This document shows, piece by piece, positions 6,134-50,362 of a DNA stretch of 64,000 nucleotides. The first letter of the stretch is position 1, and each line of letters starts with the position of its first letter. The stretch comes from a virus. Below the pieces are notes generated by a model, which was given only the letters and a program-made list of their open reading frames with translations, did no database searches and was not told where the DNA came from. The position numbers and the translations under genes are program-made. The stretch is from positions 40,151-104,150 of IMG/VR virus record IMGVR_UViG_3300047089_000152; one strand, given 5' to 3'.

Positions 6134-6999
6134 ACGAGACCATAGAACGAGAAGACCGCAGGGCCGTCACCGCGCTCACCTCCGGGGAAAACGCCACGAA
6201 GGTCACCGTCAAAACAAGCGACGGCAACTACGAAGAACGACAGCTAACCGTCCACGGGCTCGCACGGCTGATTCCCGTGATCGCACTGGGCGACATGGAC
6301 CGGCTGATAGACGACGTGCGCGAACACGGCGTCCTCGAACCCCTGATCATGTTCCAGGGACAAGTCCTTGACGGACGCAACCGGCTCGCCGTAGCTTCGG
6401 TCGTCGGCGTACCCGTGCAGCTCACCGAATTCGACGGAGACGAAGCCGCAGCCAGAAACTTCGTCTGGTCCGCGAACGCTGCGAGGCGGCACCTGTCCGT
6501 CCCCCAGATCGCGCTGGCCGCTGAACGGTTCGGTTTCGTCGACGCCGCCAAAGCCGAAGCAGGCCCCGACGACCCCAACCTGGATATCCGCTCGACGGTC
6601 GCACCATGGGCGCGAATCGCCGCGCGAAAGGTCGGTGCGATCACCCCGGCTACACTGGAACGGTTCCAGCAAGCCAGGATCCCCGAGGCACCCGACACGA
6701 TGCGCCGGGTCGATTCCGGTGAGATCCGCCGGGTCGACGTCGCGGTCAAGGAAGCGGTCGCGGAGCGGACCGTGCTCACCGGCCGTCTCATCCAGGTTCC
6801 ACCCCCGGTTGCGCGTACCGCGTGGGACCGGCTGGGCTGCGCGCGGGGTGACGTTCTCGCCGCGGAACGCGCCATCCTGGCAGGGGACTGGGGTGGGATG
6901 GAAAGGGACCAGTTCGCTGTCCGCGCCCGTGAAATCCAGGGAGCCCTGATCAGGATTCAGAATTTGTATCGTTATGGATCGGGCGGCAGGACCGGTTAG
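6130..6999 (+). CDS. ParB/Srx-like N-terminal domain protein
   Basis: LIDDVREHGVLEPLI...VLDGRNRL...SANAARRHLS. Confidence 0.85.
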   Translation: MNETIEREDRRAVTALTSGENATKVTVKTSDGNYEERQLTVHGLARLIPVIALGDMDRLIDDVREHGVLEPLIMFQGQVLDGRNRLAVASVVGVPVQLTEFDGDEAAARNFVWSANAARRHLSVPQIALAAERFGFVDAAKAEAGPDDPNLDIRSTVAPWARIAARKVGAITPATLERFQQARIPEAPDTMRRVDSGEIRRVDVAVKEAVAERTVLTGRLIQVPPPVARTAWDRLGCARGDVLAAERAILAGDWGGMERDQFAVRAREIQGALIRIQNLYRYGSGGRTG

Positions 7000-7057
7000 G
7001 ACGGGCTAGGAATGGCTGGGCTGGGCATGGACTGGAATGGCAGGAATGGAATGGCTA
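6985..7057 (+). ncRNA. GGH-NN mini-array (1 full unit), putative guide RNA
   Basis: GGCAG-GACC + 9 pentamers + GGCAG-GAAT. Confidence 0.75.
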
Positions 7058-7323
7058 AGCCGGATTTCGCCCACGGCGTGCAAGGCTACAACTGGCACAA
7101 GTGCCGGTGCGAACAGTGCCGGGCGGCTAACTCCGCCCGGTCCCGTACCTCCCGCGCTGCCCGCAAAGCACGCACCGCGGCGGGTGACCCCGCCGTCCCG
7201 CACGGGACCAGGGGCGGGTACACCAACTGGGCGTGCCGGTGCCTGCCATGCTCCCAGGCCAACAGCGAGGCGTGCCTGGAATACCGGAACGCCCACAGTA
7301 ACCGTCAGGACATCGTGACCTGA
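7051..7323 (+). CDS. actinophage-type zinc-finger protein
   Basis: two HG..GY...CRC..C repeats. Confidence 0.75.
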   Translation: MAKPDFAHGVQGYNWHKCRCEQCRAANSARSRTSRAARKARTAAGDPAVPHGTRGGYTNWACRCLPCSQANSEACLEYRNAHSNRQDIVT

Positions 7324-7399
7324 CACCGTGGCCAGCCCCGTACCACTGGTGTAGTGTGACCGGGGTACGTTCAATGCTGGCGGAAACAGAAGGGCATAC

Positions 7400-8044
7400 A
7401 TGTTTACTTCTCTACGGCGCGGCCTCCTGGTCGCTGCTGCTACCGCTGTCGCGCTGGGTGGTTACGCCCTGAGTGCCAGCGCTGCTACACCTGGCTGTAC
7501 CGCAGTGGCGGGGAACGCCTGCGGGTCCTGGAACACTGAGGTGCCGGGACTGCCCGACCTCGACGTGCAAGGCGGCGCAGCGGTCAGCGGCAACAGCCTG
7601 ATCGTCTTCACCCGCAGCAACCATGACAAGGCCGAGGATTTCATGGTCCAGATCGTCGCACCGGGAGCGACCTCTAAGTACACGGTTGGCGGCTTCACGG
7701 CCGGGGTCACCACTCCTCCCGCTGGCAGCGTGGCTATCCGCTACGCGCCCAATGGCGTGGACTCCGGGCTTTGCGTCTCGACGGTCAACCCGAACGGGCA
7801 CGCTGCCGCGCAGCTTCGCGTGTGCAGCAATAACACCACCCAGTTCAACCCGTTCCAGACTTTCACCTCGCCTGTGGCGTCTGGTGACTTCACGGCGGTT
7901 CAGTTCACCGAGGTGATCCACGGCTACGTGATGACCGACCCCGCCAACAACGGCTCGATTGGCGTCAAGGGCGCTCGCGTCCAGGTGATCTTCGCCAACA
8001 ACCTTCATCACACCGGCCAGTTCTGGGGACAGAACGGCGCATGA
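7400..8044 (+). CDS. secreted protein, possibly ricin-B/beta-trefoil lectin-like
   Basis: signal peptide; GLCVST...AQLRVC and terminal QFW motifs. Confidence 0.55.
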   Translation: MFTSLRRGLLVAAATAVALGGYALSASAATPGCTAVAGNACGSWNTEVPGLPDLDVQGGAAVSGNSLIVFTRSNHDKAEDFMVQIVAPGATSKYTVGGFTAGVTTPPAGSVAIRYAPNGVDSGLCVSTVNPNGHAAAQLRVCSNNTTQFNPFQTFTSPVASGDFTAVQFTEVIHGYVMTDPANNGSIGVKGARVQVIFANNLHHTGQFWGQNGA

Positions 8045-8157
8045 CGAAACGGCAGGCGGCAGCCGGCGTGGCCTACGTGCTCTGCGCGTTCCTCGCCATC
8101 GCCGGCTTCTGCCTGCTCATCGCCGCGCTGATCATCGCCATGCCCGGCATCGACTAG
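8041..8157 (+). CDS. small membrane protein
   Basis: ATGA overlap; single hydrophobic helix, 38 aa. Confidence 0.5.
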   Translation: MTKRQAAAGVAYVLCAFLAIAGFCLLIAALIIAMPGID

Positions 8158-8170
8158 GAAAGGTTCACGC

Positions 8171-8785
8171 ATGAGATTCAGGAAACGTATTCTGGTAACC
8201 GCGGCGGCCCTGGTAGCGTTCGCCGGCCTGGCGCTGTCCAGCCCAGCTGCCCACGCCTCGACACCGTCGATCTGCGGGAACGGCGGCACCGGGTACTGCC
8301 TCAACGCCTGGGGTGGCGGCGGCACCGACCTGCCAGTCAAGATGTACAACGGCGGGGTAGCCAACGACGCCTACAACTTCCAGCAGATCGTGTTCATGTG
8401 CCACGACGGGCACGTCCACGCAGCCGCCCCGTACGGCCCGTGCCCGTTCAACAACAGCAGCCTGGACTCGCAGATGAACGGCGCGGTGATCTTCGAGATC
8501 GCCTCTGGCAGGGACGGCCTGTGCGTCGGTTCAACGTCCTCAACTGTCGGCTCGACGGAGGAAGCCTGCCCCGATAGTTTCGGTAACTTCGGCGGCTGGG
8601 GCACGATCTACGCGCAGGCGGGTAACTCCAGCTGTCAGAGCCCGAAGTTCTTCGCGGAAAGCCGGTACTGGTCAGACGCCTACGGCGGGCTGTCCAGCCT
8701 CGCGTCCGGAGGGAACGTAGGCAAGCAGGCGTTCACCTCCCCGAACACCTCGGGGGCGACCTGCTGGGGATGGGTCAACACCTAG
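8171..8785 (+). CDS. secreted cysteine-rich protein
   Basis: signal peptide ending AHA; 8 Cys; RBS GAAAGG. Confidence 0.7.
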   Translation: MRFRKRILVTAAALVAFAGLALSSPAAHASTPSICGNGGTGYCLNAWGGGGTDLPVKMYNGGVANDAYNFQQIVFMCHDGHVHAAAPYGPCPFNNSSLDSQMNGAVIFEIASGRDGLCVGSTSSTVGSTEEACPDSFGNFGGWGTIYAQAGNSSCQSPKFFAESRYWSDAYGGLSSLASGGNVGKQAFTSPNTSGATCWGWVNT

Positions 8786-8798
8786 CCCACGACACAAC

Positions 8799-8832
8799 GA
8801 AGCCCCGCCGGTGGGAACACCGGCGGGGCTTC
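8799..8832. terminator. hairpin terminator between convergent genes
   Basis: GAAGCCCCGCCGGTG-GGAA-CACCGGCGGGGCTTC. Confidence 0.8.
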
Positions 8833-8866
8833 ACTGTGTCAGAGGTCGCGCTGTACAGGGTTCACC

Positions 8867-9328
8867 CTACCAGACGCGGAAGAACATGGTGGGCCCTCCA
8901 CCCCACCAGCCTATCCACCCGATCTGCTGCCCGGTGGAGTGCGCACCGAAAGTCTGATGCCACCACGCGGTCACCAGCTCCACGTGACCCGACCCGTAGA
9001 ACGCCAAATCTCCACGCTGCGGGGCATACACGCGGTGCAGGTGCCCGGACGCCAGCATCGAATACGTCGAATGCGGCAGGGAGATCCCCGCGTGGGCGAA
9101 CGCGACCATCACCAGGCCGGAACAGTCGTAAGACGGCCCGGTGCCACCCCACGCATACCAGTGGCCGTAAGCGTTGGCCGTGGCCCAGTTCAACGCCACG
9201 TTCCCCGCATGCGAACCGCCCAGCACCATCGCATGCGACGTGGCCGCGTGGGCTGGCGGGGCCAGTGCCGGGGTGGCGAACAGCAGCCCACCCAGTATCG
9301 CCGCGACAGCCAGCAGCCGGCGCGTCAC
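8867..9328 (-). CDS. secreted NlpC/P60 (C40) cell-wall peptidase
   Basis: YAWGGTGPSYDCSGL...GDLAFY...GHV; signal peptide; GTG start overlaps the upstream stop. Confidence 0.9.
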   Translation of the reverse strand: MTRRLLAVAAILGGLLFATPALAPPAHAATSHAMVLGGSHAGNVALNWATANAYGHWYAWGGTGPSYDCSGLVMVAFAHAGISLPHSTYSMLASGHLHRVYAPQRGDLAFYGSGHVELVTAWWHQTFGAHSTGQQIGWIGWWGGGPTMFFRVW

Positions 9329-10146
9329 TTGCACACCCACTGGGCGAAGGTGTCACCGGACGCCTTGAACTTCGCGACGGCGTTGAGGGCGTTGACGTAC
9401 GGGTTGTAGAGGTTGCCCGGCACCACCTGGCCCAAAATTTGCCAAAGCGAGGTCGCCCCGGAGGGGTTGTATGCGTAGACGTTCCCGCCTGATTCGCATT
9501 CGGCGATCTCCGCGGCGTGCGCCGCCGCCCATGCGGGGCCGCCAGCGCTGATCCACAGGGCTTCCAGCCCCGCGTAGGAGTAGTGCAGCGAACCGGTCAC
9601 CGCGGACCGGCGGACACTGGACTGTCGGGCTACCGCGTGGGCAGCGGCGTGGCACGGCACGTCCCAGCCGTCCCTGTCGTTGTCACCGCACTCGTTGGGG
9701 TAGCCGTACGTGATACCCCACACCTTCCCGTTGCGGGTCACAGCGTGCCGTACAGCGGCATGCGGGGCATGGTAGGTGGACCCGAGGTGGAGCAGCTTCG
9801 GGGGGTCGGTGCACCGGGTCAGGTTCAGGACCTGGCCGGGGAAGATCAGGTTCGGGTTGCGCCCGATGGTCTTCTCGTTCTGGTGGTAGAACCCGGTCCA
9901 GTCGTTCGCGACCCCATGGCAGTACTGTACGGCCAGGCCAGCGAGGGTGTCCCCCGCCCGGACGGTGTGCTGTACGGGGAGTCCCGCGTGGACGGGCAGC
10001 GCAGCGACTGCCAGCCGCAAGCCGACAGTGTCCGGTGCAGGTCGCACAGCTACCGCCGCGGGCGACGCATACGCGGCCGGGATCAGGGTAAACGTGCTAA
10101 CAGTGGTGAAAGCGAGGGCGAGTGCACCCGCCAGCATACGTTTCAT
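9325..10146 (-). CDS. secreted LysM + lysozyme-like transglycosylase (Rpf/SLT-like)
   Basis: HTVRAGDTL...NPNLIFPGQVL LysM; IAECESGGN...SLWQI catalytic motif; signal peptide. Confidence 0.85.
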   Translation of the reverse strand: MKRMLAGALALAFTTVSTFTLIPAAYASPAAVAVRPAPDTVGLRLAVAALPVHAGLPVQHTVRAGDTLAGLAVQYCHGVANDWTGFYHQNEKTIGRNPNLIFPGQVLNLTRCTDPPKLLHLGSTYHAPHAAVRHAVTRNGKVWGITYGYPNECGDNDRDGWDVPCHAAAHAVARQSSVRRSAVTGSLHYSYAGLEALWISAGGPAWAAAHAAEIAECESGGNVYAYNPSGATSLWQILGQVVPGNLYNPYVNALNAVAKFKASGDTFAQWVCK

Positions 10147-10307
10147 CGGTGAGGTTTTCCTTTCGGGAAAGGTACCTCGCTGAAACGTAGACCAGCGCTC
10201 CCCTCGCTGTCACCGTTTCGTGATGAGTCTTCCTGATTCACCCGATAGTCCACGATTCACGCAGGTCAGCCGTCTGGGTGAATCGCCGCGGTTCGGTTAC
10301 AAGACGA

Positions 10308-10344
10308 GAAAATACCCCGCAGCGCAACGCTGCGGGGTATTTTC
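10308..10344. terminator. bidirectional intrinsic terminator
   Basis: GAAAATACCCCGCAGCG-CAA-CGCTGCGGGGTATTTTC. Confidence 0.85.
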
Positions 10345-10376
10345 AGGGAGCCCAGGGGCAGCCCTTTTTTCGAGTA

Positions 10377-10640: not shown

Positions 10641-10647
10641 GGGCGCA

Positions 10648-18000: not shown

Positions 18001-19778
18001 GCCGACTTGCCCCGGCCCAGCCACAGGTACAGAGCCGTCAGCGCCGCGACCGCGACCACCCCGATCGCGATCCACGGGTTAGCGGCGATCAGCCCCCCGA
18101 AAGACTTCGCCAAAGCAACCACCCGGCCCGGGAGAGCCTTAAGGTTGTTACCCAAGTCGCGGAACGTCGCCCCGAGGACAGCGAATTTCGTCCCCCCGCC
18201 CGCCGCTGCCAGGTCCTTCACAGCGGTCCCGGCCAGTCTCGTCCCCACCGCCGTCGCGGCGAGCTGTTCCAGCGGTCGCAGCAACCCGATCAGCGCGGTT
18301 GTTGCCAGCCCTGACCACAACCAGATCCCGTGGACAGCCACGACCACCGCGAGTATCGGCAACGGCAGTTTCGTGAAAATGTCGAAGAGTCTCGCGGCGG
18401 CACCGACGATGCTCAGCAGAGCCTCAGCGATACCGGTCTGCTGGGTGACCCGGATCAGTCTCCCGAACGCGTCACCCAGCGACACGGCGATACGGCCGAA
18501 CTCTTGCAGGTCACGCTTACCCGCGGCCAGGAAGTTCGACAGGCCGGAACCGCTAGTCGTAGCCAGGACGGTGATCTTAGCGGCCAGCCGGTCGATGAAA
18601 GCGCCCGTATCGACGGCGAGCTTGTTGAAAAGCCCGGTCTTGGTCCCTACGATCGCGATCGCGTCACCGTACAGCTGCCACACCTGCGGCCGGACCGTGT
18701 TGTGAAGCTTCTCCAGGTTCCCCGTCATCGGCGGGATCGTCGCGTTCAAAGCGTCGGAGACCGTGTGAATGTTCTGGAGCCTGTTGAACACTGCGCGGGC
18801 CGCGTCAGCCCCCGCGATACCGAACGCTGCCAGCCCCGCAGCTGCGGTGACCAGCGCCGGGATGATCACGGCGAGGGTTTCTATAACGGTATCCAGGGCG
18901 ATATGCCACCCCGACACGGCGGACAGCCCCCCGAACAGCGCCACCCGGGCGGTCAGCGCCCCGATACCGAACCGGCCGAACGCCCCAGCCCCCTGTATCA
19001 GCCTGTTGTTCGTCGCCGCGACCACAGGGTTGAGCCGTTTAAACGCCTCCTCCAGCCCGAGGAGCTGCCCCTCAGCCGCGGCTAGCCCCGCCAGGTCGAC
19101 CTTCCCGCCCAGCTTCAGGTCAGCGGCCTCACGTTTAAGCTGATCTATCGCCCCTTCAGACACCGCGATAGCCGTTATCAGCGCCTTGGCGTCGGCGCCC
19201 ACCACGATTTTCCTCGCGTAACCCTTCAGCAGCGCGATCTGCGCGAGGACAGCGTCGAGTTCCTTCTCAGCCTTGTTCCTGTCGACGTCCAGGGGCAGAC
19301 CTTCAGGGTCACCCAGCGAAGCGCGCAGGTGGAACGCTTTTTGTTCCAGCCTCGCGATCTGCAACAGGGCCTGCTTCGCGTCCGCGTCGATCTTCAGACC
19401 CGAAGCGTCCTCCCGCAGCTGCGCCAGGTTCGCGCGTTCCTTCGCGATCGCAGCGTCTATCTTCCTGGTGTCCGCGTCCATCGCGATTTTCGCGACCGTA
19501 TCCGCTAGCCCCTTAAGTTGCAGCTGCAACTTGCGGATAGTAGCCTCTGCGGGTTTCCCGTTCGCCCCGATCTTAACCTCGGCGAGCTGCCTGTTCAGGT
19601 CAGTCATCCGCGCTTTCAACGCGGCTATCTGCCCGCGGGCCTGCGTGGTGTCCGCGGTGACAGGGATTTTCCCCTCAAGCCCCGCCAGGGCCTTCGTCAC
19701 ACCGGCGATCGCCTGGCTGCGGAACATCTTCGTGTCCGCCTCAATCGAGACGAACACCTCACCGATACGGCTAGCCAC
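15036..19778 (-). CDS. tape measure protein with C-terminal lytic transglycosylase domain
   Basis: 1580 aa, Ala/Leu-rich helical; HEAGYNRFARNPSSGAYGIPQALP SLT motif; YDRGGWLKPG. Confidence 0.93.
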   Translation of the reverse strand: MASRIGEVFVSIEADTKMFRSQAIAGVTKALAGLEGKIPVTADTTQARGQIAALKARMTDLNRQLAEVKIGANGKPAEATIRKLQLQLKGLADTVAKIAMDADTRKIDAAIAKERANLAQLREDASGLKIDADAKQALLQIARLEQKAFHLRASLGDPEGLPLDVDRNKAEKELDAVLAQIALLKGYARKIVVGADAKALITAIAVSEGAIDQLKREAADLKLGGKVDLAGLAAAEGQLLGLEEAFKRLNPVVAATNNRLIQGAGAFGRFGIGALTARVALFGGLSAVSGWHIALDTVIETLAVIIPALVTAAAGLAAFGIAGADAARAVFNRLQNIHTVSDALNATIPPMTGNLEKLHNTVRPQVWQLYGDAIAIVGTKTGLFNKLAVDTGAFIDRLAAKITVLATTSGSGLSNFLAAGKRDLQEFGRIAVSLGDAFGRLIRVTQQTGIAEALLSIVGAAARLFDIFTKLPLPILAVVVAVHGIWLWSGLATTALIGLLRPLEQLAATAVGTRLAGTAVKDLAAAGGGTKFAVLGATFRDLGNNLKALPGRVVALAKSFGGLIAANPWIAIGVVAVAALTALYLWLGRGKSAVDRFNESMDRLVAHATPLNLINTLSNALSQTTAKLSNETGKLSGALKTSGGNLAALQIALQASGISNAAQDVQRLAEEHNKLAGQLTLVTGRLAGITHAFGTDGLSGAMALAALAGVKVSDFLGNSKQWTQALTQINGVVQGYANMGVGATQLGSAINVLTIAQSDQLKNVQSLNTAFDTFDKIVAGPVSGFLTFANTLKRFSNDAGVAGAAISGLGTGLTGVSRRVTDASLQLQTDFQDTFNAATQMADAFRLTGTASSQQIAAIKEVVQVMIPMAGTSKVAAAEISALAQEAGGPATTNLQLLSKWAGKTKDPLGAAQKAAAAAAISFSNMSLDAQKLGATLAQDLSKDMAVAVENAVGLQGAMNAYAKSVIHGTQATAAGHGARQTLLKDLADLGIKGPQATAVLDAMDQRLGSKLPAAAHSGSQALVDTANKIVTAGRAANDSTGKIAGMIAKVLGIPKSAAFELLMTGKGSFSLSEINAATGKQKQAAAGWYVTGGTPGKDSVAAMLMPGEVVVPTKMVNAGAVDHLRGMLPGFSGGGLVQAGDRTVLSGQYAVNKYHQFSTTMQASMVSMMRAALKAAEAAAVKAAAAAAASGGVSGAGPTGGDAAANLAIARSMFPWPSSMWPSFNTLEMHEAGYNRFARNPSSGAYGIPQALPPTKMPFAAQAAGGSHAGPQLSWMYAYIAQRYGNPVNAWNQYYAHPGGVGYYGSGGMVPGYAAGGSVASRGSAYLRAWQSKRGGGFGAAWGPVVVNQQIAAMQAAVSRAKALAGAKGLSSGQHKFWAATAADETRRLGVLGSELTVERAWRGQLGVNELGLDKEIRAAGSLKSLAGPVKGWKAQLGRDKATVNAISKMLGYSNAFIAAHPGVTPPPPGPVLPPVTHTYGGDVAGNLGAFISSVAPFMLGGMVNYDRGGWLKPGLTMAYNGTGRNEAVSASGGPTVTFEITPSGNAFDAFLISWLKKNVKVKGGGSVQRAWGSHLQER

Positions 19779-19781
19779 AGG

Positions 19782-20219
19782 TCACACCTGACCCTGGAGA
19801 GCCCACAAGGACTCCATCAAGAACGGGTACGGCCTCGCACCAGGATGATGCACGAGCGGCCCGAAATACCCCGTCGCGTAATTCGACAGCGACCAGGCCC
19901 CAGACGATTCGATGACGTGCGGTTTCGTGCCCCTCTCCAGGAACTGCGCCGCACCCGACGCGGACACCTCAGACCACGGCGTATCCGAACCGATCGCATG
20001 CAGATACGAATGGATCGAAGCGGCCGTCCCACCCGGTGGGGTCGACGTCCCCGGCCGCCCGCTCTTACCCGGCGACCCCACCACCCGCTTACGGACCTTC
20101 GCCCGGGCATACACCGCCGCCCGGCCACCCAGCTCCTGCATCAGATGCGCGACAGGGCCAAGAGGGTCATTCAGGAAAGCGCGGATCTCAGCCTCGCTGA
20201 ACTTCACGCGTACACCCAT
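19782..20219 (-). CDS. HK97 gp10-like tail completion protein
   Basis: FLERGTKPHVI...VHHPGARPYPFL. Confidence 0.8.
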   Translation of the reverse strand: MGVRVKFSEAEIRAFLNDPLGPVAHLMQELGGRAAVYARAKVRKRVVGSPGKSGRPGTSTPPGGTAASIHSYLHAIGSDTPWSEVSASGAAQFLERGTKPHVIESSGAWSLSNYATGYFGPLVHHPGARPYPFLMESLWALQGQV

Positions 20220-22582: not shown

Positions 22583-22591
22583 TGGTAGGAT
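22583..22591 (+). promoter_or_regulatory. extended -10 promoter of a mini-array
   Basis: TGGTAGGAT, 7 nt before the first pentamer. Confidence 0.65.
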
Positions 22592-22598
22592 AGTAATT

Positions 22599-22667
22599 GC
22601 ATTGGAGGGGCATGGCATGGCACGGCCCGGAGTGCTGGGGTGGGGAACGGAATGGATGGGCAGGATA
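22599..22667 (+). ncRNA. GGH-NN mini-array (1 unit), antisense to the late operon
   Basis: 12 pentamers + GGCAG-GATA, intergenic. Confidence 0.8.
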
Positions 22668-22689
22668 GATCCAGGTTGGTGCGCATCTT

Positions 22690-23100
22690 TTACAGGTGCG
22701 CACCAACCTGGATCAGAAATGAGCATCCCATGTATTGCTGGCCGGCGTATTCGGTGAGTCCGTAGGTCATCACCTGCAATACGACCGTGAACTCCACCGC
22801 CCCGCCCAGGGTCGGGTCAGCCTGCACCGCCGCGTTGATGCTTTTAGTACCGGACGTGGACACGTAGTCGTCGATTACGTCCTGGCCGGAAGCGTCGTTC
22901 GCGGCGGATACCAGCACGACGGCGAGGAGATTGACCTGGGTTTCGCCGTCCATCGTGATGCCGTAATTGACCGCTGGCCGGTTCGGGATTATGACCGCGC
23001 ATGGCGGTATGACCTGCCCGGGTGCGATCGCGTGTACGTTCAGCCCGGTGGTGGATAGCCGGGTTGCGAGCGCGACCCTGATCGCTTTGACGTTAGCCAT
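22690..23100 (-). CDS. tail terminator / tail completion protein
   Basis: position; SINAAVQADPTLGG motif. Confidence 0.7.
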   Translation of the reverse strand: MANVKAIRVALATRLSTTGLNVHAIAPGQVIPPCAVIIPNRPAVNYGITMDGETQVNLLAVVLVSAANDASGQDVIDDYVSTSGTKSINAAVQADPTLGGAVEFTVVLQVMTYGLTEYAGQQYMGCSFLIQVGAHL

Positions 23101-32869: not shown

Positions 32870-33476
32870 GGTACCAGCGTAGCTCCTCATCCAAGTCGGA
32901 GTAATCCTCGTACCAGGCGACGTGATCCGCGACGTACGGGTGCCCCGTGCGGATCGCGGACAGCGTGATGTCGAATCCTTCTTGCAACGGCCGGTACATC
33001 GCCAGGGTCGTGTCGACCGGGGCCTTGTACACACCGTCATCCAGGGGGGTGTCCCAGAATTGCTGTTCCCACTTCAGCACGTGGTCCTTGCGCTGGTACG
33101 TATCAGGGATGCGGTCCAGTCGCAATCCCATCCCAGCTTTGCCGTACTCCGGGTAGGCGTCCAGCAGCCGGTACAGCCTGTCGGGCCAGTCCAGCGGGCA
33201 GTCATCAGACGGGATCACGTCACAGTCGGTGACCACGTACAGGTCGTCGCTGCACAACTGGCGGAACGGCTCCCAGCCCCACAGGCTCCTCGGGTGGCCG
33301 CCACCGTGGAGCAGTATCTCCACCCCCGCAGCGTTCATCGCTTTCAGCCAGTCCCCCGCGAGGGGCCAGCTGGATCCCATGTCGATGATGACAGGTTTCA
33401 GTCCGGCTTCGGTCATCGCGGTCAGGCACAGGTGGGCGTATGTCACACGGTCCCGGCAGATAATGAAGGCGCGCAT
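32805..33476 (-). CDS. GT-A fold glycosyltransferase
   Basis: IIDMGS, YVVTDCDV (DxD), APVDTTLAMY; TACAAT 6 nt before ATG. Confidence 0.75.
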   Translation of the reverse strand: MRAFIICRDRVTYAHLCLTAMTEAGLKPVIIDMGSSWPLAGDWLKAMNAAGVEILLHGGGHPRSLWGWEPFRQLCSDDLYVVTDCDVIPSDDCPLDWPDRLYRLLDAYPEYGKAGMGLRLDRIPDTYQRKDHVLKWEQQFWDTPLDDGVYKAPVDTTLAMYRPLQEGFDITLSAIRTGHPYVADHVAWYEDYSDLDEELRWYHEHAEPGISYWTVAGRSTWGI

Positions 33477-37356: not shown

Positions 37357-38319
37357 TTAACCATCGGGGTGCTCCCGGTACCAGTCAGACGTCAATGCCA
37401 GCCCAGCTTCAAAGCTGACCTGGGGTCCGTCGTAGCCCAGTGCCATGATCTTCCCGATGTCCGGTAGCCGCCGCGAAGGACTGCCCTGCGGGAGGATACC
37501 AGTCTCGATTTTGATCCGCCGGAAATACCGTTGCGCCACGGCGTAGGCCACATCCGCGACAGTCCGCTCATCCATCGTGCCCAGGTGGTAGATCTCCGCG
37601 CCACGCGGCGACTTGTCCAGCAGCGTCACGAACTGTTCCACGCAGTCACTGATGTAGCAGAACGACCGGGTTTCCTCACCGCTACCCTGGATCAGGAACG
37701 GGACCGGGTCCAGGGTGGAATTCGCCAGGCCGTTCATGCGCTGGCAGAACTCCGGTATCACATGCCGGGTGCCCATGTCCGGCCCGTAAATGTTGTGGGG
37801 CCGGACGATGATCAGCCGGTCCAGGATCCCGGTCCGCTGCCACGCCAGCGCGGCCAGCTCGGAAGCGATCTTCCCGCCCCCGTAGGAGTAGCGGGGGTTC
37901 AGCGGGTCAGGGACTACCAGCGGCACGGTCTCCGGGGTCGGCCACACCGGGGGTGTCTCGTACGCCTCGGAAGAGGAGACCAGCAGAAGTTCCCGGCAGC
38001 CCGTCACCCGGCACGCTTCCAGGACGTTCACGATGCCGCGCAACGCCACGTCCAGAACCTGCCGGGGTTCAGAATAGAAAGTCTGGGTGCCTTGCAGATA
38101 CGCCAGGTGCAGGACCCGTTCACAGCCGTGCATCGCCCGGGTCACCACGTCAGGGTCGCGGACATCACCGTTGACGATCTCGCAGGCTACCCCCGCCAGG
38201 CGGTCCGGCCGGCCGCGGCTCATGTCATCCAGCACCACAACGTCGTGGCCGTCACCGGCAAGCCGCCGGGTCAAAGCCGAGCCGATGAAACCGGCACCGC
38301 CGGTAATCAGGTATCTCAT
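37357..38319 (-). CDS. NAD-dependent nucleotide-sugar epimerase/dehydratase
   Basis: TGGAGFIG, SSSE, YGGGK, RPHNIYGP. Confidence 0.92.
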   Translation of the reverse strand: MRYLITGGAGFIGSALTRRLAGDGHDVVVLDDMSRGRPDRLAGVACEIVNGDVRDPDVVTRAMHGCERVLHLAYLQGTQTFYSEPRQVLDVALRGIVNVLEACRVTGCRELLLVSSSEAYETPPVWPTPETVPLVVPDPLNPRYSYGGGKIASELAALAWQRTGILDRLIIVRPHNIYGPDMGTRHVIPEFCQRMNGLANSTLDPVPFLIQGSGEETRSFCYISDCVEQFVTLLDKSPRGAEIYHLGTMDERTVADVAYAVAQRYFRRIKIETGILPQGSPSRRLPDIGKIMALGYDGPQVSFEAGLALTSDWYREHPDG

Positions 38320-39107
38320 CCGGTCATGCTATCCGCACGGGGACGGAACCAGCCAGCCGGGCAACGTCTTTCATGGACCCACCGGGGCCACGTATCGTCC
38401 ACGTCCACCGGGATCATGCCGCCCTGATACCCGAACCGGCCGAACGGGTTCGCACCGTCATGGTAGAACCGGTCATCTTCGTACCCAGCCGCCAAGTCGG
38501 GGTTGCATTCGACATGACAGTGCGCGTCCATCTTCGCGGCGATACTATCCCGGCCGCCCAGCCACGTCAGGTGGTGACCAGCATCGGGGATCACCGGGCC
38601 GCGGCTCCACGTGTCCCGACGCACCGACGACAAAGGCCCCGTAATACCGGCAGGGCACAGCGTGGACGTGCGCAGCGGCGCACCCCACAGCCAGTCGACC
38701 GCGAACATGCAGCAAGCCATTTCCAGGACACCCGTCCTGTGTTCTCCCACCGCGCGCATCGCCGCGTAGTTCGGTATCTCATCGACGTCAGCCAGGATCA
38801 GCCAGTCATCAGCAGACGCCCCGTCCAGCCCAGCCCGGATAGCGTCACGCTGCGCAGCCTCACGGTCCATCGGGGCGGCCCCTGCCATCCCCGGGAGGCT
38901 GTCAGCGACCACGTGGACGATGCGGTCTTTCCACGGCGCGAACCGCTCCTTATTCGCCGCGTAAACGAGAGGTTTCGGGTGTCCCTGATGGTCGACCCTG
39001 GCCTCAACCAGGACGTGCCGGTAGATAGGCCAGTCTTCCATCTGCACCAGCCGGCATTCCAGCACGTCCAGCTCGTCGCGGAACAGGAACGTGTCCCAGA
39101 TTTTCAC
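38316..39107 (-). CDS. GT17-like (beta-1,4-GlcNAc transferase) glycosyltransferase
   Basis: DTFLFRDELDVL, HPKPL, EAAQRD, ADVDEIP, GHHLTW. Confidence 0.8.
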   Translation of the reverse strand: MKIWDTFLFRDELDVLECRLVQMEDWPIYRHVLVEARVDHQGHPKPLVYAANKERFAPWKDRIVHVVADSLPGMAGAAPMDREAAQRDAIRAGLDGASADDWLILADVDEIPNYAAMRAVGEHRTGVLEMACCMFAVDWLWGAPLRTSTLCPAGITGPLSSVRRDTWSRGPVIPDAGHHLTWLGGRDSIAAKMDAHCHVECNPDLAAGYEDDRFYHDGANPFGRFGYQGGMIPVDVDDTWPRWVHERRCPAGWFRPRADSMTG

Positions 39108-39327
39108 GCCGCCCATGACCTCCGGTCGTGCCGGGCTACAGCGGGACCGCGCCCACCGGGACACGCACCGCGTGCACATGACGGTCGGGTCGTACGGGTC
39201 CAGTCGCGTCCATGCGCCACACCAGAAACAGTACCCCACGGCATAAGCCCTCCACGGACAGGCTGCCGGGGTCTAGGACAGCGGTTATGTATAACCCTGA
39301 CCGTCGTTAGCATCATAGCGTCCCATG

Positions 39328-39336
39328 TGGTACGCT
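39328..39336 (+). promoter_or_regulatory. extended -10 promoter of a mini-array
   Basis: TGGTACGCT. Confidence 0.65.
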
Positions 39337-39351
39337 TAGAGTCCGAGCCGA

Positions 39352-39429
39352 GGCAGGATGGGATTGGCATGGCGCGGCAAGGTAGGGCTCGGATCGGCAA
39401 GGAATGGATAGGAACGGCAGGAGTGGCAG
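39352..39429 (+). ncRNA. GGH-NN mini-array (1 unit)
   Basis: GGCAG-GATG + 11 pentamers + GGCAG-GAGT, followed by a hairpin. Confidence 0.82.
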
Positions 39430-39431
39430 GG

Positions 39432-39460
39432 TGCGGTCCTCTCGTATCGGGAGGACCGCA
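39432..39460. terminator. hairpin between the mini-array and the convergent radical SAM gene
   Basis: TGCGGTCCTC...GAGGACCGCA. Confidence 0.7.
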
Positions 39461-39477
39461 TCTCCATTTTCCAACCG

Positions 39478-40761
39478 TCATCCTGCCGCCATATGTGAGT
39501 CGAAGAAATTATCCTTCGGGCCGATATGGGAACGGAACTTGTACTTACGGATCAATTCCTCGCGGATTCCCACGAGGTCTTCTGAACTGAGTTCCGCCGT
39601 GCGGACCACGGAATCGGTACCCATGTTCTTTTGCCCGTAGGCGCCAAGTCCTTCTCCAGTAAATATCAGGTCGGTAGCTATTCCCTCGTCCATTTCCCGC
39701 CTGAATTCTGTGCCGCGATAAGGATAATAGATAGCAATCTGCGCATCATCTATCCCTGACGTGCAGATGAACCGTTCAGTCTCCGCGATCGTAGCGCGTG
39801 TCTCGCCGGGTAGCCCGATCATCACGAATGCTTTCACGGTGATGCCCGCATCCTTGCAGTACCGGACACAATCGTAATTCTGCGTGGCGGTTGTCTTCTT
39901 ATCCATCCGGTCTAGCATCTGCTGCGACCCGGATTCCGCACCAAACGCCACCTCGACACACCCCGCATCGGCTAGCGCCGCGGCGAACTCCGCGGTCATG
40001 AATTTCGCGTGCACATTGCAGCGAAATCTTAGCCCGGAGCGCTTGAGTAGGTCCAGGTACGGCTGGCACTTCCCCAAATTAATTGCAAAAAGATCATCAT
40101 ACAAATACACGCCCTCATACCCGAGCGTCACGATGTCGTCCAGTTCGGCCTCGGCGTTGCCCAGCGAAGTCCACCTGGTCAGCGTCCGCGCGTCTTCACA
40201 GAACTTGCACGCCATCGGACAGCCCCGGCCGAGCATCATCGTGGTCGAGTTCAGCCCGGCCAGGGTGTACGAGTAGTTTTTCAGGAACCCAGGCTCACCC
40301 AGCCGGTCCGGGCGGGGCATCGCCGCTAGTTCCTGCCGGGGGATCTGGTCGTTGCTCATGACAGGAACCGTTTTGTTCTGCACGATGCCTGGCAGTGCCC
40401 GCTCCCCGTCGCCTGCCACCAGGTAGTCCCACAGCCCGGCCTGGTCGTCTGCGTTCATCTCCCGGCCGTAATGCCGGACGTGCGGGCCGCCTGCCACCAG
40501 AACTTTGGACGGCCAGCGGCTCCTGATCGCGCGGGCTATCCGGTTAGCCTCGGCGCGCTGCGGTGTCATCACCGAGACGCCTACTATGTCAGCGTCCGCG
40601 AACTGGTCCAGATCCTCGACGTCGTATTCGTCTACGACGCTGATCTTAGTACCGGGGGCCTGCGCGGCCACCGCGGATTTCAGGTACAGCAGGCCGAGGG
40701 GCGGGTAGATACGGTCGTCGTCCAGGAACGGGGACCGGCAGGAAACCAGGGACAGTTTCAT
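39478..40761 (-). CDS. cobalamin-binding radical SAM enzyme (class B methyltransferase-like)
   Basis: PPLGLLYL, GGPH, GDGE B12 domain; GRGCPMACKFC; GAESGSQ; IGLPGET. Confidence 0.92.
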   Translation of the reverse strand: MKLSLVSCRSPFLDDDRIYPPLGLLYLKSAVAAQAPGTKISVVDEYDVEDLDQFADADIVGVSVMTPQRAEANRIARAIRSRWPSKVLVAGGPHVRHYGREMNADDQAGLWDYLVAGDGERALPGIVQNKTVPVMSNDQIPRQELAAMPRPDRLGEPGFLKNYSYTLAGLNSTTMMLGRGCPMACKFCEDARTLTRWTSLGNAEAELDDIVTLGYEGVYLYDDLFAINLGKCQPYLDLLKRSGLRFRCNVHAKFMTAEFAAALADAGCVEVAFGAESGSQQMLDRMDKKTTATQNYDCVRYCKDAGITVKAFVMIGLPGETRATIAETERFICTSGIDDAQIAIYYPYRGTEFRREMDEGIATDLIFTGEGLGAYGQKNMGTDSVVRTAELSSEDLVGIREELIRKYKFRSHIGPKDNFFDSHMAAG

Positions 40762-45016: not shown

Positions 45017-45022
45017 GGCCGG

Positions 45023-46018: not shown

Positions 46019-46049
46019 GTCTCCTGTCCTTCTCTTTGTACTACGCCGG

Positions 46050-46406
46050 TCAGGATTTCCTGGCGGGCCGGGCCTTATTCATAGATTTCGCGGGCTTTTT
46101 AGCCGCGGGCTTAGCCGCAGCAGGCTTCGCTTCGGCAGCAGGCTTCGCGGTCTTCGCGGCAGCTGAATCGCCCTTACCCTGCGAGGATGGCAACTCCGGG
46201 TATTTCCGACGGACCGCTGCCTGAACTTTTGCCTTCTCCGCAGGCGTCCCATTCGCCGCAACTCGTGACAGGGCGTTAGCGCCCCGTGCCTTAGAGTTAA
46301 TAGGGTATGCGTCAGCACCACCAGGACCACCACCAGGCAGCGCATACGACCCAGCCGGCGCGGCAGTATTAGGCGCAGGCTTACCGGTCTTCTTCCTCGG
46401 TGGCAT
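46050..46406 (-). CDS. basic head-region protein with Lys/Pro/Ala-rich tail
   Basis: YALP...YPI...NALSR...VRRKYP, similar to the protease N-terminal extension. Confidence 0.7.
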   Translation of the reverse strand: MPPRKKTGKPAPNTAAPAGSYALPGGGPGGADAYPINSKARGANALSRVAANGTPAEKAKVQAAVRRKYPELPSSQGKGDSAAAKTAKPAAEAKPAAAKPAAKKPAKSMNKARPARKS

Positions 46407-46425
46407 ATAATCTCCCTTAGTGCCA

Positions 46426-46499
46426 GGTATGGAGGGGTGCGGCTTGGCGTGGCTTGGCGGGGCGCGGCGGGGATTGCATTGGATTGGATTGGCAGGAAC
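46426..46499 (+). ncRNA. GGH-NN mini-array (1 unit)
   Basis: TATAAT at 46406-46411; 13 pentamers + GGCAG-GAAC; then a hairpin. Confidence 0.8.
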
Positions 46500-46500
46500 G

Positions 46501-46535
46501 TCACTGACCTGCACCTACGCGGTGCAGGTCAGTGA
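46501..46535. terminator. 15-bp hairpin between the mini-array and the portal stop
   Basis: TCACTGACCTGCACC-TACGC-GGTGCAGGTCAGTGA. Confidence 0.8.
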
Positions 46536-48164
46536 TTCCCGTTGTGTCCGTTTGAGCTGGCCTTCGGCGGAATCCACGGCCCGACGAACTCGGGGCCAAG
46601 CGCATCATCACGTTCCGCCTGGCGGACCGCTGCGACAATCTTCGCGAACACTTCCGGGTGGACACTGGAACCATCGCCGCGCACGGACGTGATCTCCTTG
46701 ACGATCTCCTGGAGAACATTCGGCGGGACGAACCCGCCCGCACCCGCAGCACCAGCCGCACCCGCCACGGCAGGCCCGTTCGCGCCCAGAGCACCAGGCA
46801 CGTTTATCCCAGGCGGGGCGTTCCCCGCACCAGGCCCCGACGGCTGACCCGTACCCGGCGGCAACCCCACCGGCTCCTGACCAGCCTGGAGTTCTTGCAG
46901 ATACTCGACCAGCAGCCGCTGTTCCAGGGTGACCTGCGGGAGGAACGAATTCGGGATCGCCCGCGTCGACCGGGCCATCGCGACAATCGCGTCCAGCGGG
47001 ATCGTGTCCTTACCCATCTGCTGCGGCAACGGCTCCAGGTCCTCCGTGTCACGCATCTCATCAATCGACTTGAACCCGATGTCCCGCCACGTCTTGTAAA
47101 TGTTCGCCCGTTCAGCCAGGTCAGCTTTCAGCAGCGCGTCAGTAGCGAACCGGGCGTAACGGTTCGCCGGTAGCAGCTTGAAGAACGCGGTCTCCAGCCG
47201 GACCAGCCACGGGCGCAGCGCCTCGATGATCTGCAACGCACCCTGCTGCACCGTGGAATACGTCAGCGAGTCGCCACGCTTACCACCCACCCGGTCAGGA
47301 GGCAATCCATAAACAGCGGCGAGCTGCGTCGCGTTCATCTGCATCGCCTCAATAAACTGCGCCTCCGACGGCGGAACAGTCACCGGGTGATAATCCCAGT
47401 CACGACCGTATACCAAGGGGGTCCTGTTGCGAATCGACTGGTTCAGTGCGCTGCGGATCTCCGCAGCCTGCGACGGGTCGATCTCGATCTCGTTGTTCTT
47501 GAACGTACCCGGAGGGAACCCGCCGGCCTTGAACCAGTCCGTCCCGAACCGGGTAGCCTCCAGGCCATTCAGGATCGTCAACGCGAACGCGCGCAGCGGA
47601 GAGATACCCTCCGTGCGGCCAGCAAGACTGAATGCCTTGATGTGGAAATATTCGTCGCGCTGCATCAACCGCCCGTAAAAATACACGCGGGACCGAAGCG
47701 GATTGTACGGCTGCGACTCGTCGTCAATGACCGTGATCATCTCCGGGGGCATCCACTGGATCTGCGTCGGATACCCGTACCCGTCACGCCCCAGAATGTA
47801 TCCCCACGCGTTACCGTGCAGCAAAAGCGCGGTCAAGCATTCATAAAGCCAATCCATAAGATTTGTTGACGGGGACGGGTCGTCGAATATCGACGGGCCA
47901 TCCCACTTCTTCTGCCCCGCACCCGGCGTTTTAATGTAAACTTTCAGCGGCAACGACGCGATGTACTCAGCGATCATCCGCACGCACGCGTACAGCGGTG
48001 TCAGTCTTAGCGCCTCGTCGGCCCCGTAAAACGAACGGGACGGATGCGCAGGGCCACCAGCACTGAAGGGAAAGTAAATACGGCGAGTCCCACGGCCTCC
48101 AGGGCACGCCAGAAATAACACGACTCTCAGTTTTACTCGCCAGTACCCGCTCGACCAGACCCAC
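46529..48164 (-). CDS. HK97-family portal protein (apparent frameshift near codon 30)
   Basis: YACVRMIA...SLPL, LLLHGNAW, GISPL, AQFIE, YSTVQQ; natural N-terminus MGLVERV lies in another frame. Confidence 0.9.
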
Positions 48165-48221
48165 CAGATCACCCCCCTTCTTTATCTTGCGTTCCCTGCT
48201 AGATACCCTTATTATTGATTC

Positions 48222-48917
48222 ATGTCACGAACAGCGATAGACCTCACTGGGCAACGCTTCGGGCGTCTGACCGTACTGATACGCGACCGCACACGCCGAG
48301 GAGCTACATACTGGCGCTGCCTCTGTGATTGCGGCAACGAAAAGACCGTCGCTAGTGCTTCGCTACGCCGTAGCGCCACGACAAGCTGCGGCTGCGCCCA
48401 CCGCGAGATGCTGATAGCGCGCAACACCGGGCGCTGGCCCGAGCCGTTCTCAGTCCCTGGATCGCCATCCGCGCCGAAACCAGGATCAGGGCCGAAACCA
48501 AGCGTGCTGCATAAACCGACGTACCACTCCTGGTACGGCGCGGTCCGTCGATGCACCAGACATGACGACCCTGGATGGCCACGATACGGAGGTCGCGGTA
48601 TCACGGTCTGCGAACGCTGGCTCGATTACAAAAACTTCCTGGCCGATATGGGCGAGAGGCCCCCCGACAGGACACTCGACCGGATCAACAACGACGGGGA
48701 CTACGAGCCAGGCAACTGCCGCTGGGCCACGATCCAGCAGCAGTCCCGCAACACAAGCACCTTCAAGCTGACCCCTGCCAAGATCAGAGAGATACTGGAC
48801 CTTAGCAAGGCAGGTCTGGGTCCGGGGCAGATCGCCATACAGACGGACATCAGCTACAGGAATACGCGACTCGTCATCTCGATCGCGGAGGTTGTACGGG
48901 CGGCCTTGGTCGCGTAG
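48222..48917 (+). CDS. HNH homing endonuclease
   Basis: DLTGQRFGRL...CLCDCG; YGGRGITVCERW...TLDRINNDGDYEPGNCRWAT; antisense insertion beside the portal; leaderless (TATTAT + 6 nt). Confidence 0.9.
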   Translation: MSRTAIDLTGQRFGRLTVLIRDRTRRGATYWRCLCDCGNEKTVASASLRRSATTSCGCAHREMLIARNTGRWPEPFSVPGSPSAPKPGSGPKPSVLHKPTYHSWYGAVRRCTRHDDPGWPRYGGRGITVCERWLDYKNFLADMGERPPDRTLDRINNDGDYEPGNCRWATIQQQSRNTSTFKLTPAKIREILDLSKAGLGPGQIAIQTDISYRNTRLVISIAEVVRAALVA

Positions 48918-49120
48918 TATGTCCGTGCCGGGTTACCTCACGGAAGTCACGGTAGCCCGGCTCAGGCCCCCGCCTGTATGGGTACACGCGTATCCCGAAG
49001 CTTTTAAACGGAGGGAACGGGCGTGGTCCGCCGTCACACGCGGAGGGGGCACAAAGCTTTAACGCGGGTCCCAGTGCTCGTAGTATCCGCGTGACTGGTC
49101 GGCTAGCGTGCAGGTCATGG

Positions 49121-49360
49121 TCAGCCCCGTTCTGGTTGCGGTGCGGGTGTGACGGTCACGTGCGCGCCGACACGGTAGCCGTACCGGACGGCGAGGCAGC
49201 AGAACACTACGCTGCGCCACAGCGAACCCGTCAGCCAGCCGATCGCGAAGAAAAACGCCGTGACCAGCGTGATGATCATCACGCCCGCGCGGACCTGGCT
49301 GGCGTGTTCAGCTATCTGCTCGACGGGTACGGCTGATAGTGGCCGGGTCGCGGTTGCCAT
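49121..49360 (-). CDS. small membrane protein
   Basis: hydrophobic core; RBS GGAGG. Confidence 0.6.
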   Translation of the reverse strand: MATATRPLSAVPVEQIAEHASQVRAGVMIITLVTAFFFAIGWLTGSLWRSVVFCCLAVRYGYRVGAHVTVTPAPQPERG

Positions 49361-49367
49361 GTTCCTC

Positions 49368-50267
49368 CTACAATCCCTTGTCGGTCATCCACGTCTGCGC
49401 GGCCTTGGCTACCTTCGCGTTTCCGCCGATGTGGTGGAGCTGCACCCACGGGTGGAGCAGCGTGGCGAACGCGACGTCGTCGGTGTTGTGACCCGGGACA
49501 GGCACCGGGGGTACCGGGACAGGGACGGGTGCGGGGGCGGTCAACGGCAGGGACACGGTCGCGTCACCCTGTTCGGCTAGCAGCCGTTCCAGTGTCGCGT
49601 AGGAGTAGCAGAATGAGCCGTCGACACCGAACCCTGTGCCCCACGAATTGTCCAGGAACAGGATCTTCTTGTCGACGTCCTTGCCGCGGCACAGATATTC
49701 GTGGCCACCCCGGATCTGCGCGCCAGGGCTGACGGCTACGAGGCCGCTGCTATCGGGTCGGTCCATCGAGTCATACCAATTCGACCCGATGCCTACCGGG
49801 CCTGCTTCCAGCGCGTCGAGGACGTCTGCGAGGGAGAAGCAGTGCAGGTACCCCGAAATCCAGCCCATGTTCTTCGCGACCTGCGCCGCCGACGGCCCCG
49901 ACGAACCATTGTCGTTGGGAGGGTAGGGACCATCCCCGTCGATGGTCTCAGCCCCACTGTAGATCCGCAGCGCCAGCGGCTCATCCAGAGGGATGTGACC
50001 GGCTGGTAGCGCGTCGAACAGGGGTCCCGTGCCGAGCGCACCAACCTGCTCGTTTCCGGTGCAGGACCCGACGTTGCCCTGATCCAGGATGGGGATCTGC
50101 CGGGGCCACAGCTGGGTCGTTAGCCCCGCCGCGGTCCGCTGCCACGGATATGCGCGGTTCCGCTCGTCATGATACAGATTCCGCCCCAAGGGCAGGGGGT
50201 TCTCGGCTGATGCAGCCTGCCAAGGGATGCGGGCACGCTGGGTGGACCATGCGGTCACTACAACCAT
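49368..50267 (-). CDS. papain-like cysteine peptidase (possible endolysin-type)
   Basis: LDQGNVGSCTG, GGHEY, NSWG catalytic motifs. Confidence 0.8.
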   Translation of the reverse strand: MVVVTAWSTQRARIPWQAASAENPLPLGRNLYHDERNRAYPWQRTAAGLTTQLWPRQIPILDQGNVGSCTGNEQVGALGTGPLFDALPAGHIPLDEPLALRIYSGAETIDGDGPYPPNDNGSSGPSAAQVAKNMGWISGYLHCFSLADVLDALEAGPVGIGSNWYDSMDRPDSSGLVAVSPGAQIRGGHEYLCRGKDVDKKILFLDNSWGTGFGVDGSFCYSYATLERLLAEQGDATVSLPLTAPAPVPVPVPPVPVPGHNTDDVAFATLLHPWVQLHHIGGNAKVAKAAQTWMTDKGL

Positions 50268-50279
50268 GAGTCTCCTACG

Positions 50280-50288
50280 TGGTACACT
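50280..50288 (+). promoter_or_regulatory. extended -10 promoter of a mini-array
   Basis: TGGTACACT(GTAGGTAC), identical to positions 8-24. Confidence 0.7.
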
Positions 50289-50303
50289 GTAGGTACAGAA
50301 AGG

Positions 50304-50362
50304 GGATAGGAGCGGCAGGGCTTGGCCTGGAGAGGATCGGCTGGGATTGGATTGGCAGGCTT
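50304..50362 (+). ncRNA. GGH-NN mini-array (1 unit)
   Basis: 10 pentamers + GGCAG-GCTT. Confidence 0.78.

Follow-up and report, generated by a model that had tools for sequence, protein, structure and literature searches.

A putative VIPR locus and its arrays

The window analyzed here comes from a soil phage and is the last 64 kb of the 104,150-bp IMG/VR virus record IMGVR_UViG_3300047089_000152, whose completeness is estimated at 81% and for which a search for near-identical phage records found none. Tracts in which GG recurs every 5 nucleotides (nt), almost all of them on the + strand, are scattered across the window; the longest spans 1.28 kb (4645-5925), and shorter ones lie at 3170-3300, 6976-7054, 22599-22664, 39352-39436, 46426-46495 and 50304-50359. 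The long tract stands next to a gene for a small Cas7-fold protein, and five of the short ones are single-guide cassettes, each beside a gene of the same phage that the guide matches with mismatches. VIPR has been described as a small RAMP protein, Vipr, which has an RRM core, a glycine-rich loop and a thumb, with vrRNAs built of GGY/NN pentamers and with vap (10.64898/2026.04.26.720920). We lean towards identifying the locus and its arrays as a VIPR system, the arrays being vrRNA guide genes, a judgment made jointly with the interference reading set out below.

The locus begins with a leader cassette (cassette A, 3145-3300, + strand), in which a motif resembling an extended -10 promoter, GTGGTACGCT (3145-3154), precedes a run of units with two GGCA marks (3170-3300), all upstream of vipr. 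The vipr gene (3371-4036, + strand) encodes a 221-residue protein of the RAMP/Cas7 fold with a C-terminal glycine-rich loop, and this G-rich block is conserved. The product has 607 homologs, including one of 93% identity encoded on an 8.7-kb contig; it has no Pfam family, and its PHROG, 4652, is listed as of unknown function. A Foldseek comparison of its AF2 model (pLDDT 85.4) with the PDB ranked Csm3/Cas7 chains first (E 4e-5, prob 1.00), from CRISPR complexes of types III and VII, and it is through these chains and the array next door that the protein is called Vipr here. One nucleotide past the vipr stop codon starts a partner gene (4038-4595, + strand, 185 residues), a candidate vap. It has no Pfam, PHROG or PADLOC family, and the protein atlas places it in unnamed viral clusters only; its AF2 model has a pLDDT of 94, and comparison of this fold with the PDB gave nothing informative, Foldseek and VIA-align pairing just the long C-terminal helix with coiled coils. 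A perfect stem-loop (4596-4640, + strand; -41.5 kcal/mol, z -8.0) lies between the partner gene and the main array (4645-5925, + strand). This array is staggered and holds about 21 putative guides of 8-17 pentamers each, which close on a 4-nt GGCA end, and the spacing between its successive GGCAGG marks is mostly 5n+4.

The unit of all these arrays is GG-M-NN, M being A or C and NN being positions 4-5. Of 213 exact units from the long tract, in all of which the search pattern fixes GG, 85% have A or C as the third base (1.61 bits), and positions 4 and 5 vary freely (1.99 and 1.96 bits). Because position 3 of the main array is constrained and positions 4-5 are free by this entropy analysis, NN was assigned to the latter. 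A parse with NN at positions 3-4 gave best matches of 6-7/10, equal to shuffles and none of them in the neighboring genes, and it was dropped after the entropy analysis. We also rejected a protein-coding reading of the 1.28-kb array; its long minus-strand frames stem from the GG register, and the 4-nt units break every frame.

Solo guides match the genes beside them

Each guide was scanned with a 1-nt skip in the target between NN pairs, over the whole 64-kb window as well as within +/-1 kb, and significance was taken from 1000 shuffles of the NN order per guide. Mini-array B (6976-7054, + strand), which has GGCAGG at both flanks and runs on the same strand as its neighbor, carries guide B in units 6989-7038. 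This guide matches 8/10 dinucleotides (18/20 nt) at 6949-6977 (+ strand), in the last codons of the gene at 6130-6999, where the peptide is IRIQNLYRYG. The first-pass annotation had called this gene ParB-like; the label, kept here as a handle, gained no backing, as searches gave no Pfam family at E<=1, no PDB sequence match and one unnamed PHROG. Mini-array B has no promoter motif of its own. Guide and near-target share a strand in inverted orientation, with 11 nt between them, and therefore a read-through transcript of the ParB-like gene would hold the guide together with its complementary sequence.

Cassette C (22583-22714, + strand) consists of a motif of the extended -10 type, TGGTAGGAT (22583-22591), 12 units plus GGCA (22599-22664) and a 21-bp hairpin (22668-22714; -41.7 kcal/mol, z -10.7). 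Its guide (units 22599-22658) matches 8/12 dinucleotides (19/24 nt) at 22982-23016 on the - strand, within the tail-terminator gene (22690-23100, assigned by PHROG 17840; peptide QVIPPCAVIIPN). Cassette D (39327-39463, + strand) has the same motif as the leader cassette, GTGGTACGCT (39327-39336), then an array (39352-39436) and a hairpin (39429-39463; -29.4 kcal/mol, z -6.0). Guide D (units 39356-39415) matches 9/12 dinucleotides (20/24 nt), or 9/11 once its mismatched first unit is left out, at 40076-40110 on the - strand, in a B12-binding radical SAM gene (39478-40761; Pfam PF04055 and PF02310; peptide VYLYDDLFAINL).

Cassette E (46406-46535, + strand) starts with TATAAT (46406-46411), which overlaps the start codon of its target gene, and continues with an array (46426-46495) and a hairpin (46501-46535; -29.4 kcal/mol, z -5.6). 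Its guide (units 46426-46490) matches 9/13 dinucleotides (19/26 nt) at 46354-46391 on the - strand, that is, codons 6-18 of the gene after the portal (46050-46406; peptide KTGKPAPNTAAPA). Five aligned relatives have the ribosome-binding site and start of this next gene immediately after the portal stop; an insertion of about 108 nt, comprising the hairpin and array E, is found in this phage only. Cassette F (50279-50359, + strand), with GTGGTACACT (50279-50288) and an array (50304-50359), sits between the terminase stop and the start of a papain-like peptidase gene (49368-50267). Guide F (units 50304-50353) has a weak near-target in that gene at 50149-50177 on the - strand (peptide LYHDERNRAY), with 5/10 dinucleotides (13/20 nt). 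The same junction is empty in the relative L139, and in the sister phage L141 it holds a cassette with another guide (L141:4280-4355). The junction cassettes of L141 and of this phage share the promoter motif and the GGCAGG end, and their guides read different parts of one gene.

The motifs upstream of the cassettes look like extended -10 promoters. Four of the five solo cassettes (C, D, E and F) have one of their own, and three (C, D and E) have a strong 3' hairpin. GTGGTAC(G/A)CT lies about 15 nt upstream of A, D and F; it also occurs on the + strand at 54100-54109 and 60552-60561 without arrays, so it is probably an ordinary phage promoter type. With these promoters and terminator hairpins, cassettes C-F would therefore be self-contained + strand units, antisense within - strand operons. 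They lie 18.5-46 kb from vipr, and B lies 3 kb from it. An orphan vrRNA is defined as one more than 20 kb from vipr, or on a contig without one (10.64898/2026.10.15.759431); by this rule D, E and F count as orphans, C narrowly misses the limit and B is too close.

For B, C, D and E the neighboring site is the single best match in the whole window, and for F it is tied for best; the neighbor is thereby the top match of four of the five guides, where about 3% would be expected for each. Window-wide, the shuffle P was <0.001 for B, 0.004 for C, <0.001 for D, 0.077 for E and 0.999 for F, and within +/-1 kb it was <0.001, 0.001, <0.001, 0.023 and 0.127, respectively; taken alone, the match of guide F is not significant against shuffles on either scale. 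The signal appears with a skip of 1 nt (z 6.3 for B, 4.4 for C, 5.8 for D and 2.4 for E), and skips of 0, 2 or 3 nt leave z close to 0 for all guides. For all five guides the base passed over is the third of a codon in the neighboring open reading frame (ORF), and each guide is complementary to the sense strand of its gene, at a distance of 11 to about 660 nt. Decoded in this way, guide D spells VYIFDDLFAINQ, where the phage itself has VYLYDDLFAINL, and guide B spells IRIQQIYRYG, where it has IRIQNLYRYG. The roughly 21 guides of the main array serve as internal controls for adjacency, as none of them has such a self match.

Much of this had been anticipated by the first-pass annotation, which proposed that five mini-arrays match their neighbors in an NN-x-NN register, antisense to the sense strand and with many mismatches that decode conservatively. 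The match counts were recovered (with 9/12 for D, its earlier 9/11 leaving out the first unit), as was the wobble skip in every guide, and the decoded and self peptides of B and D differ conservatively as claimed. Scanned across the window against shuffles, B, C and D stood out, E reached the P of 0.077 given above, and F did not separate from its shuffles. The antisense orientation applies to all five guides here and is no general rule, as the sister phages below make clear. The annotation was right about the register and about the wobble skip, which makes a guide insensitive to synonymous change, and these features equal what has been reported for VIPR, whose NN pairs read double-stranded DNA on either strand with one base skipped per unit and whose natural targets place the skip on the codon wobble base (10.64898/2026.04.26.720920). 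Since the reading rule was already published, we regard this part as a re-derivation and not as a discovery.

Relatives fit most solo guides better than the carrier does

The relative G001 (119 kb, 97% complete) has a portal 80% identical to that of this phage and contains neither arrays nor a VIPR locus. For guide D, six of six relatives have VYLFDDLFAINL at the target, which agrees with the guide at 22/24 nt, against 20/24 for the VYLYDDLFAINL of the carrier. For guide C the closest relative, L177, reaches 22/24 nt against 19/24 in self, and for guide E five relatives reach 11/13 dinucleotides (22/26 nt) against 9/13 (19/26). Guide F follows the same direction at a lower level, with 15/20 nt (6/10 dinucleotides) in relatives against 13/20 (5/10). 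Its site is an orthologous HDSRN motif that is invariant in the relatives, and self has E where the guide and all relatives have S; self differs at 1/4 otherwise invariant columns of the guide F window and at 1/113 elsewhere. At the loci that correspond to cassettes C, D, E and F, the better-fitting relatives have no arrays. A portal-based metagenome scan yielded 18 loci, mostly from the same phages as those in IMG/VR.

Near the portal, three contigs of sister phages have solo cassettes of their own, and three independent guides of sister phages repeat this pattern. Guide a of L141 matches 12/14 dinucleotides in 15 relatives, this phage included, and 7/14 at its own site about 360 nt off; the target peptide is TIDGDGPYPPNDNG in this phage (49906-49946) and MIDGGAGYPPEDEG at the site of L141 itself. 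For guide b of L141 the relatives, again including this phage (51968-52011), score 12/15, and the site in L141 itself, about 50 nt off, scores 9/15; the guide of L166 finds 9/12 in relatives and 7/12 in L166 itself, about 55 nt off. The own targets carry an excess of substitutions: within the guide a window of L141, 5/13 otherwise invariant columns are changed, compared with 4/111 elsewhere (P=6e-4), and within the guide b window 4/14 are changed, compared with 4/66 elsewhere (P=0.03). Two of the three sister guides (L141a, L141b and L166) are sense-identical, and therefore the antisense orientation is not general; such a mixture agrees with the either-strand DNA targeting of the papers.

Seen from the side of this phage, guide a of L141 meets the peptidase gene at 12/14 dinucleotides (25/28 nt), and guide b meets an ORF upstream of the large terminase (51937-52356) at 12/15 (26/30 nt). 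This phage is thus itself a predicted target of the L141 guides.

Other guides and wider occurrence

The remaining guides gave no comparable result. None of the roughly 21 main-array guides matched self, G001 or the relatives clearly above background, and the same holds for the guides of cassette A, the longest of which did no better than shuffles in self. One main-array guide (5747-5801) reaches 8/11 dinucleotides at genome positions 2861-2892, far from the array, where the others reach 5-7. A further array, H, lies 7 kb before the window start on the - strand (genome positions 33353-33408) and consists of 10 units plus GGCA, a single guide whose first and last units are similar to those of cassette F. 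Its guide showed no match above shuffles in self or G001 and none clearly above background in the relatives.

Two arrays of the sister phages differ in their ends. Both L141:2389-2445 and L163:37-201 are GGC-NN arrays, the former with a GGTTACG tail and a hairpin and the latter with GGCAGTC punctuation, and there may be more than one vrRNA type in this phage group. Around cassette D, the B12-binding radical SAM enzyme and a family 17 glycosyltransferase are encoded amid virion genes (38316-40761); in G001 their counterparts have about 5.7 kb of other DNA between them.

By pattern scan, GG-M-NN-like tracts occur in more than 119 other viral contigs. A sample of 276 guides from 119 unrelated IMG/VR loci was surveyed, with the best match at the own locus counted at z>=2.5. 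Sixteen of the 276 guides pass, and nine of these 16 matches lie less than 250 nt from the array, where 0.9 would be expected (P=5e-8); in 6/9 of these close matches the skip falls on the third codon position of the longest open frame. Homologs of Vipr with 47.5% identity are found in cultured Mycobacterium and Gordonia phages, among them the M. smegmatis phages Saal, Gorge and Quico, which points to an actinobacterial host and a tractable test system. Saal and Gorge are cluster F mycobacteriophages. In Mycobacterium phage Saal (L191) the homolog is gp51, annotated as hypothetical, and a 250-nt staggered GGC-NN array with GGCAGGC punctuation lies just upstream of it (Saal 19594-19841), next to the immunity region.

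Discussion

Our case for VIPR rests on the Cas7 fold of the putative Vipr, on GG-M-NN units with hypervariable positions 4-5, on GGCA-punctuated runs of 8-17 units and on the fact that a 1-nt skip alone gives signal. For the solo cassettes we propose the following, which we hold to be the probable explanation, if with considerable reserve: the guides exert allele-specific interference against sister phages, and each guide is kept next to an allele that resists it. If the published mechanism is assumed, one Vipr protomer would cover each GG-M trinucleotide, and the exposed NN pairs would read double-stranded DNA with one base skipped. Each solo guide would be aimed at the allele of the neighboring gene in related phages that share the host, and the carrier's own copy would be spared by non-synonymous changes at the bases that the guide reads. 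With the guide beside the resistant allele, recombination between sister phages could not part the weapon from its antidote. In a mixed infection, or in a cell with a resident relative, Vipr filaments would bind the rival genome at the target genes and block transcription. We infer from the sequences that the guides are transcribed and loaded, that two to four mismatched units would be enough to spare self and that binding would harm the rival.

Several observations weigh against this proposal. The single known relative for guide B fits it at 4/10 dinucleotides (by eye), where self reaches 18/20 nt, a self match above the >=80% threshold at which the VIPR papers call targets. At 20/24 nt (83%) the self match of guide D is also high, so the sparing of self is not assured, and the preprints, in the text available, do not state how many mismatches are tolerated. 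Exact-pattern scans of IMG/VR found no perfect natural target for B or for D (units 2-12), and the best relatives reach 83-92% of the informative bases and 100% for none of the five guides. At the E target there is no excess of self-divergence, the N-terminal stretch being variable in all phages. Finally, if a structural gene of the rival is silenced, the carrier's product may complement it in trans, and therefore a cis-acting effect would be needed. The first-pass proposal that orthologs are targeted and self has escaped is accordingly borne out for C, D, E and F, with the three sister replicates, and fails for B, where self is the best match; its expectation of relatives that fit a guide perfectly found no example in the scans for B and D.

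A different outcome of the same recognition event would be a homing-like drive, which we consider possible and clearly short of probable. Here the bound rival allele would suffer a break or a stalled fork, and repair from the carrier would copy the resistant allele together with the cassette, which would spread as the free-standing homing endonuclease genes of T-even phages do. The layout is that of intronless homing, with an intergenic cassette by the recognized gene and a self-protecting polymorphism in the target, and one site, the terminase/peptidase junction, is occupied by guide F in this phage and by a different guide in L141 and is unoccupied in L139. The locus itself offers no recognized nuclease: the partner gene has neither a family nor a fold match, and the ParB-like label of the neighbor of B has no Pfam or PDB-chain support. 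Predicted nucleases are reported for VIPR types III-V, and the characterized systems silence rather than cut (10.64898/2026.04.26.720920). At the same tentative level, the solo cassettes might be described as RNA-guided selfish elements that, in a mixed infection, would disable the rival's allele of an essential gene and pass by recombination into the rival along with the resistant allele.

Self-regulation is a less attractive explanation still, and we think it rather unlikely. It would have the solo guides bind their own neighbors by partial complementarity and time or damp their expression, the fit to relatives being incidental. Such a role would suit the self matches of B and D, which at 18/20 and 20/24 nt reach or exceed the 80% level of the papers, the position of the cassettes within or beside the operons they would control and the uniform orientation of all five guides to their genes. 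Yet self fits worse than relatives in 7/8 tests (C, D, E, F, L141a, L141b and L166, B being the other), and the own site of L141, at 7/14 with five substitutions in a block that is invariant elsewhere, resembles avoidance and not tuning. The first VIPR paper reports no self-targeting at >=80% NN match in its sets (10.64898/2026.04.26.720920).

We give little credence to the idea that the cassettes are relics, in which the guides once copied local or ancestral sequence and, through later divergence of guide and gene, no longer target anything. In its favor stand the lack of any known perfect target and the poor match of guide F everywhere; against it, the GG register is intact, the cassettes keep their GGCA ends, promoter motifs and strong hairpins, and the self-specific differences fall at columns that are invariant in relatives, which agree with the guide. 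Chance, by which the matches would be the best picks among many alignments, is already refuted: F is no better than shuffles and the positions 3-4 parse lacks signal, yet across the window B and D reach P<0.001 and C reaches 0.004, the neighbor comes out on top in 4/5, and the skip falls on codon position 3 in 5/5 with signal at a skip of 1 nt only.

If allele-specific interference is correct, VIPR would be aimed at close relatives as well as at satellites and prophages, and it would act on one allele at a time, in ordinary genes for structural proteins and enzymes. Resistant alleles would then account for odd substitutions in otherwise invariant protein motifs. One genome supplies five guide/near-target pairs for such a study, in which the array-less sisters are natural targets and the cassette-bearing sisters are independent replicates, and the homologs of the Vipr clade in cultured M. 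smegmatis phages make bench tests feasible. The layout also raises the question of how new guides arise and spread. Were the selfish-element reading true, the cassettes would be an RNA-guided counterpart of the marker exclusion by homing endonucleases, and could be one way in which new guides and sites emerge and move through phage populations.

Comparison with known systems

The code, the wobble argument, orphan vrRNAs and the better fit of some orphans to non-self are already published. What appears to be new, judged by keyword against the available text of the preprints, is the recurring placement of a guide gene beside the carrier's own altered copy of the sequence that the guide spells. 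The type II exemplars of VIPR are Escherichia phage SUSP1 and a Pseudomonas fulva prophage (10.64898/2026.04.26.720920; structures in 10.64898/2026.04.26.720927). As in the published systems, we find a small Cas7-fold protein beside pentamer arrays with two hypervariable bases, 8-17 units (published, 9-16), a 1-nt skip on the wobble base and a phage-borne locus with predicted targets in competing phages; the staggered array, in which neighboring vrRNAs overlap by 1 nt, is like the one in the legend of fig. S18 of 10.64898/2026.04.26.720920. Unlike the published systems, the scaffold here is GG-A/C and not GG-pyrimidine, a variant consensus of the kind the papers allow, and the partner gene is of no recognizable family. 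Further differences are the five single-guide cassettes amid structural and replication genes, each by the phage's own mismatched copy of the sequence that it spells, and the self match of guide B, at 80% of dinucleotides (90% of bases), where the first paper has none at >=80%.

Another parallel is with the orphan vrRNAs of F5 satellites and VIPR-null SUSP1-like phages, which are also stand-alone vrRNA genes away from vipr, with wobble-aligned targets and a better match to rivals than to self (10.64898/2026.10.15.759431). The better match to non-self is read there as avoidance of autoimmunity (section 8 of the same preprint). Those orphans sit at a former VIPR locus or in satellites, and they are aimed at vipr genes, other vrRNAs, satellites or host REP decoys (10.64898/2026.10.15.759431). 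By contrast, the carrier studied here keeps vipr, and each guide, apparently directed at an ordinary phage gene, has the carrier's putatively resistant allele next to it; a keyword search of the available preprint text returned no description of a guide beside its own resistant allele at ordinary phage genes.

With the Cas7 backbones of type I and type III CRISPR-Cas, VIPR shares the RAMP fold, the oligomerization of protomers along the guide and the periodic displacement of bases. It has no CRISPR repeats, spacers or cas1/cas2, and two in five RNA bases are read in VIPR compared with five in six in CRISPR. Free-standing homing endonuclease genes of T-even phages practice intronless homing and cause marker exclusion. 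In layout, which alone is compared here, the solo cassettes are similar to these genes: the cassette is intergenic and lies by the recognized gene, and the rival allele would be recognized and the own allele protected by its differences. They differ in the agent of recognition, which in the solo cassettes would be a guide RNA together with a trans-acting Vipr.

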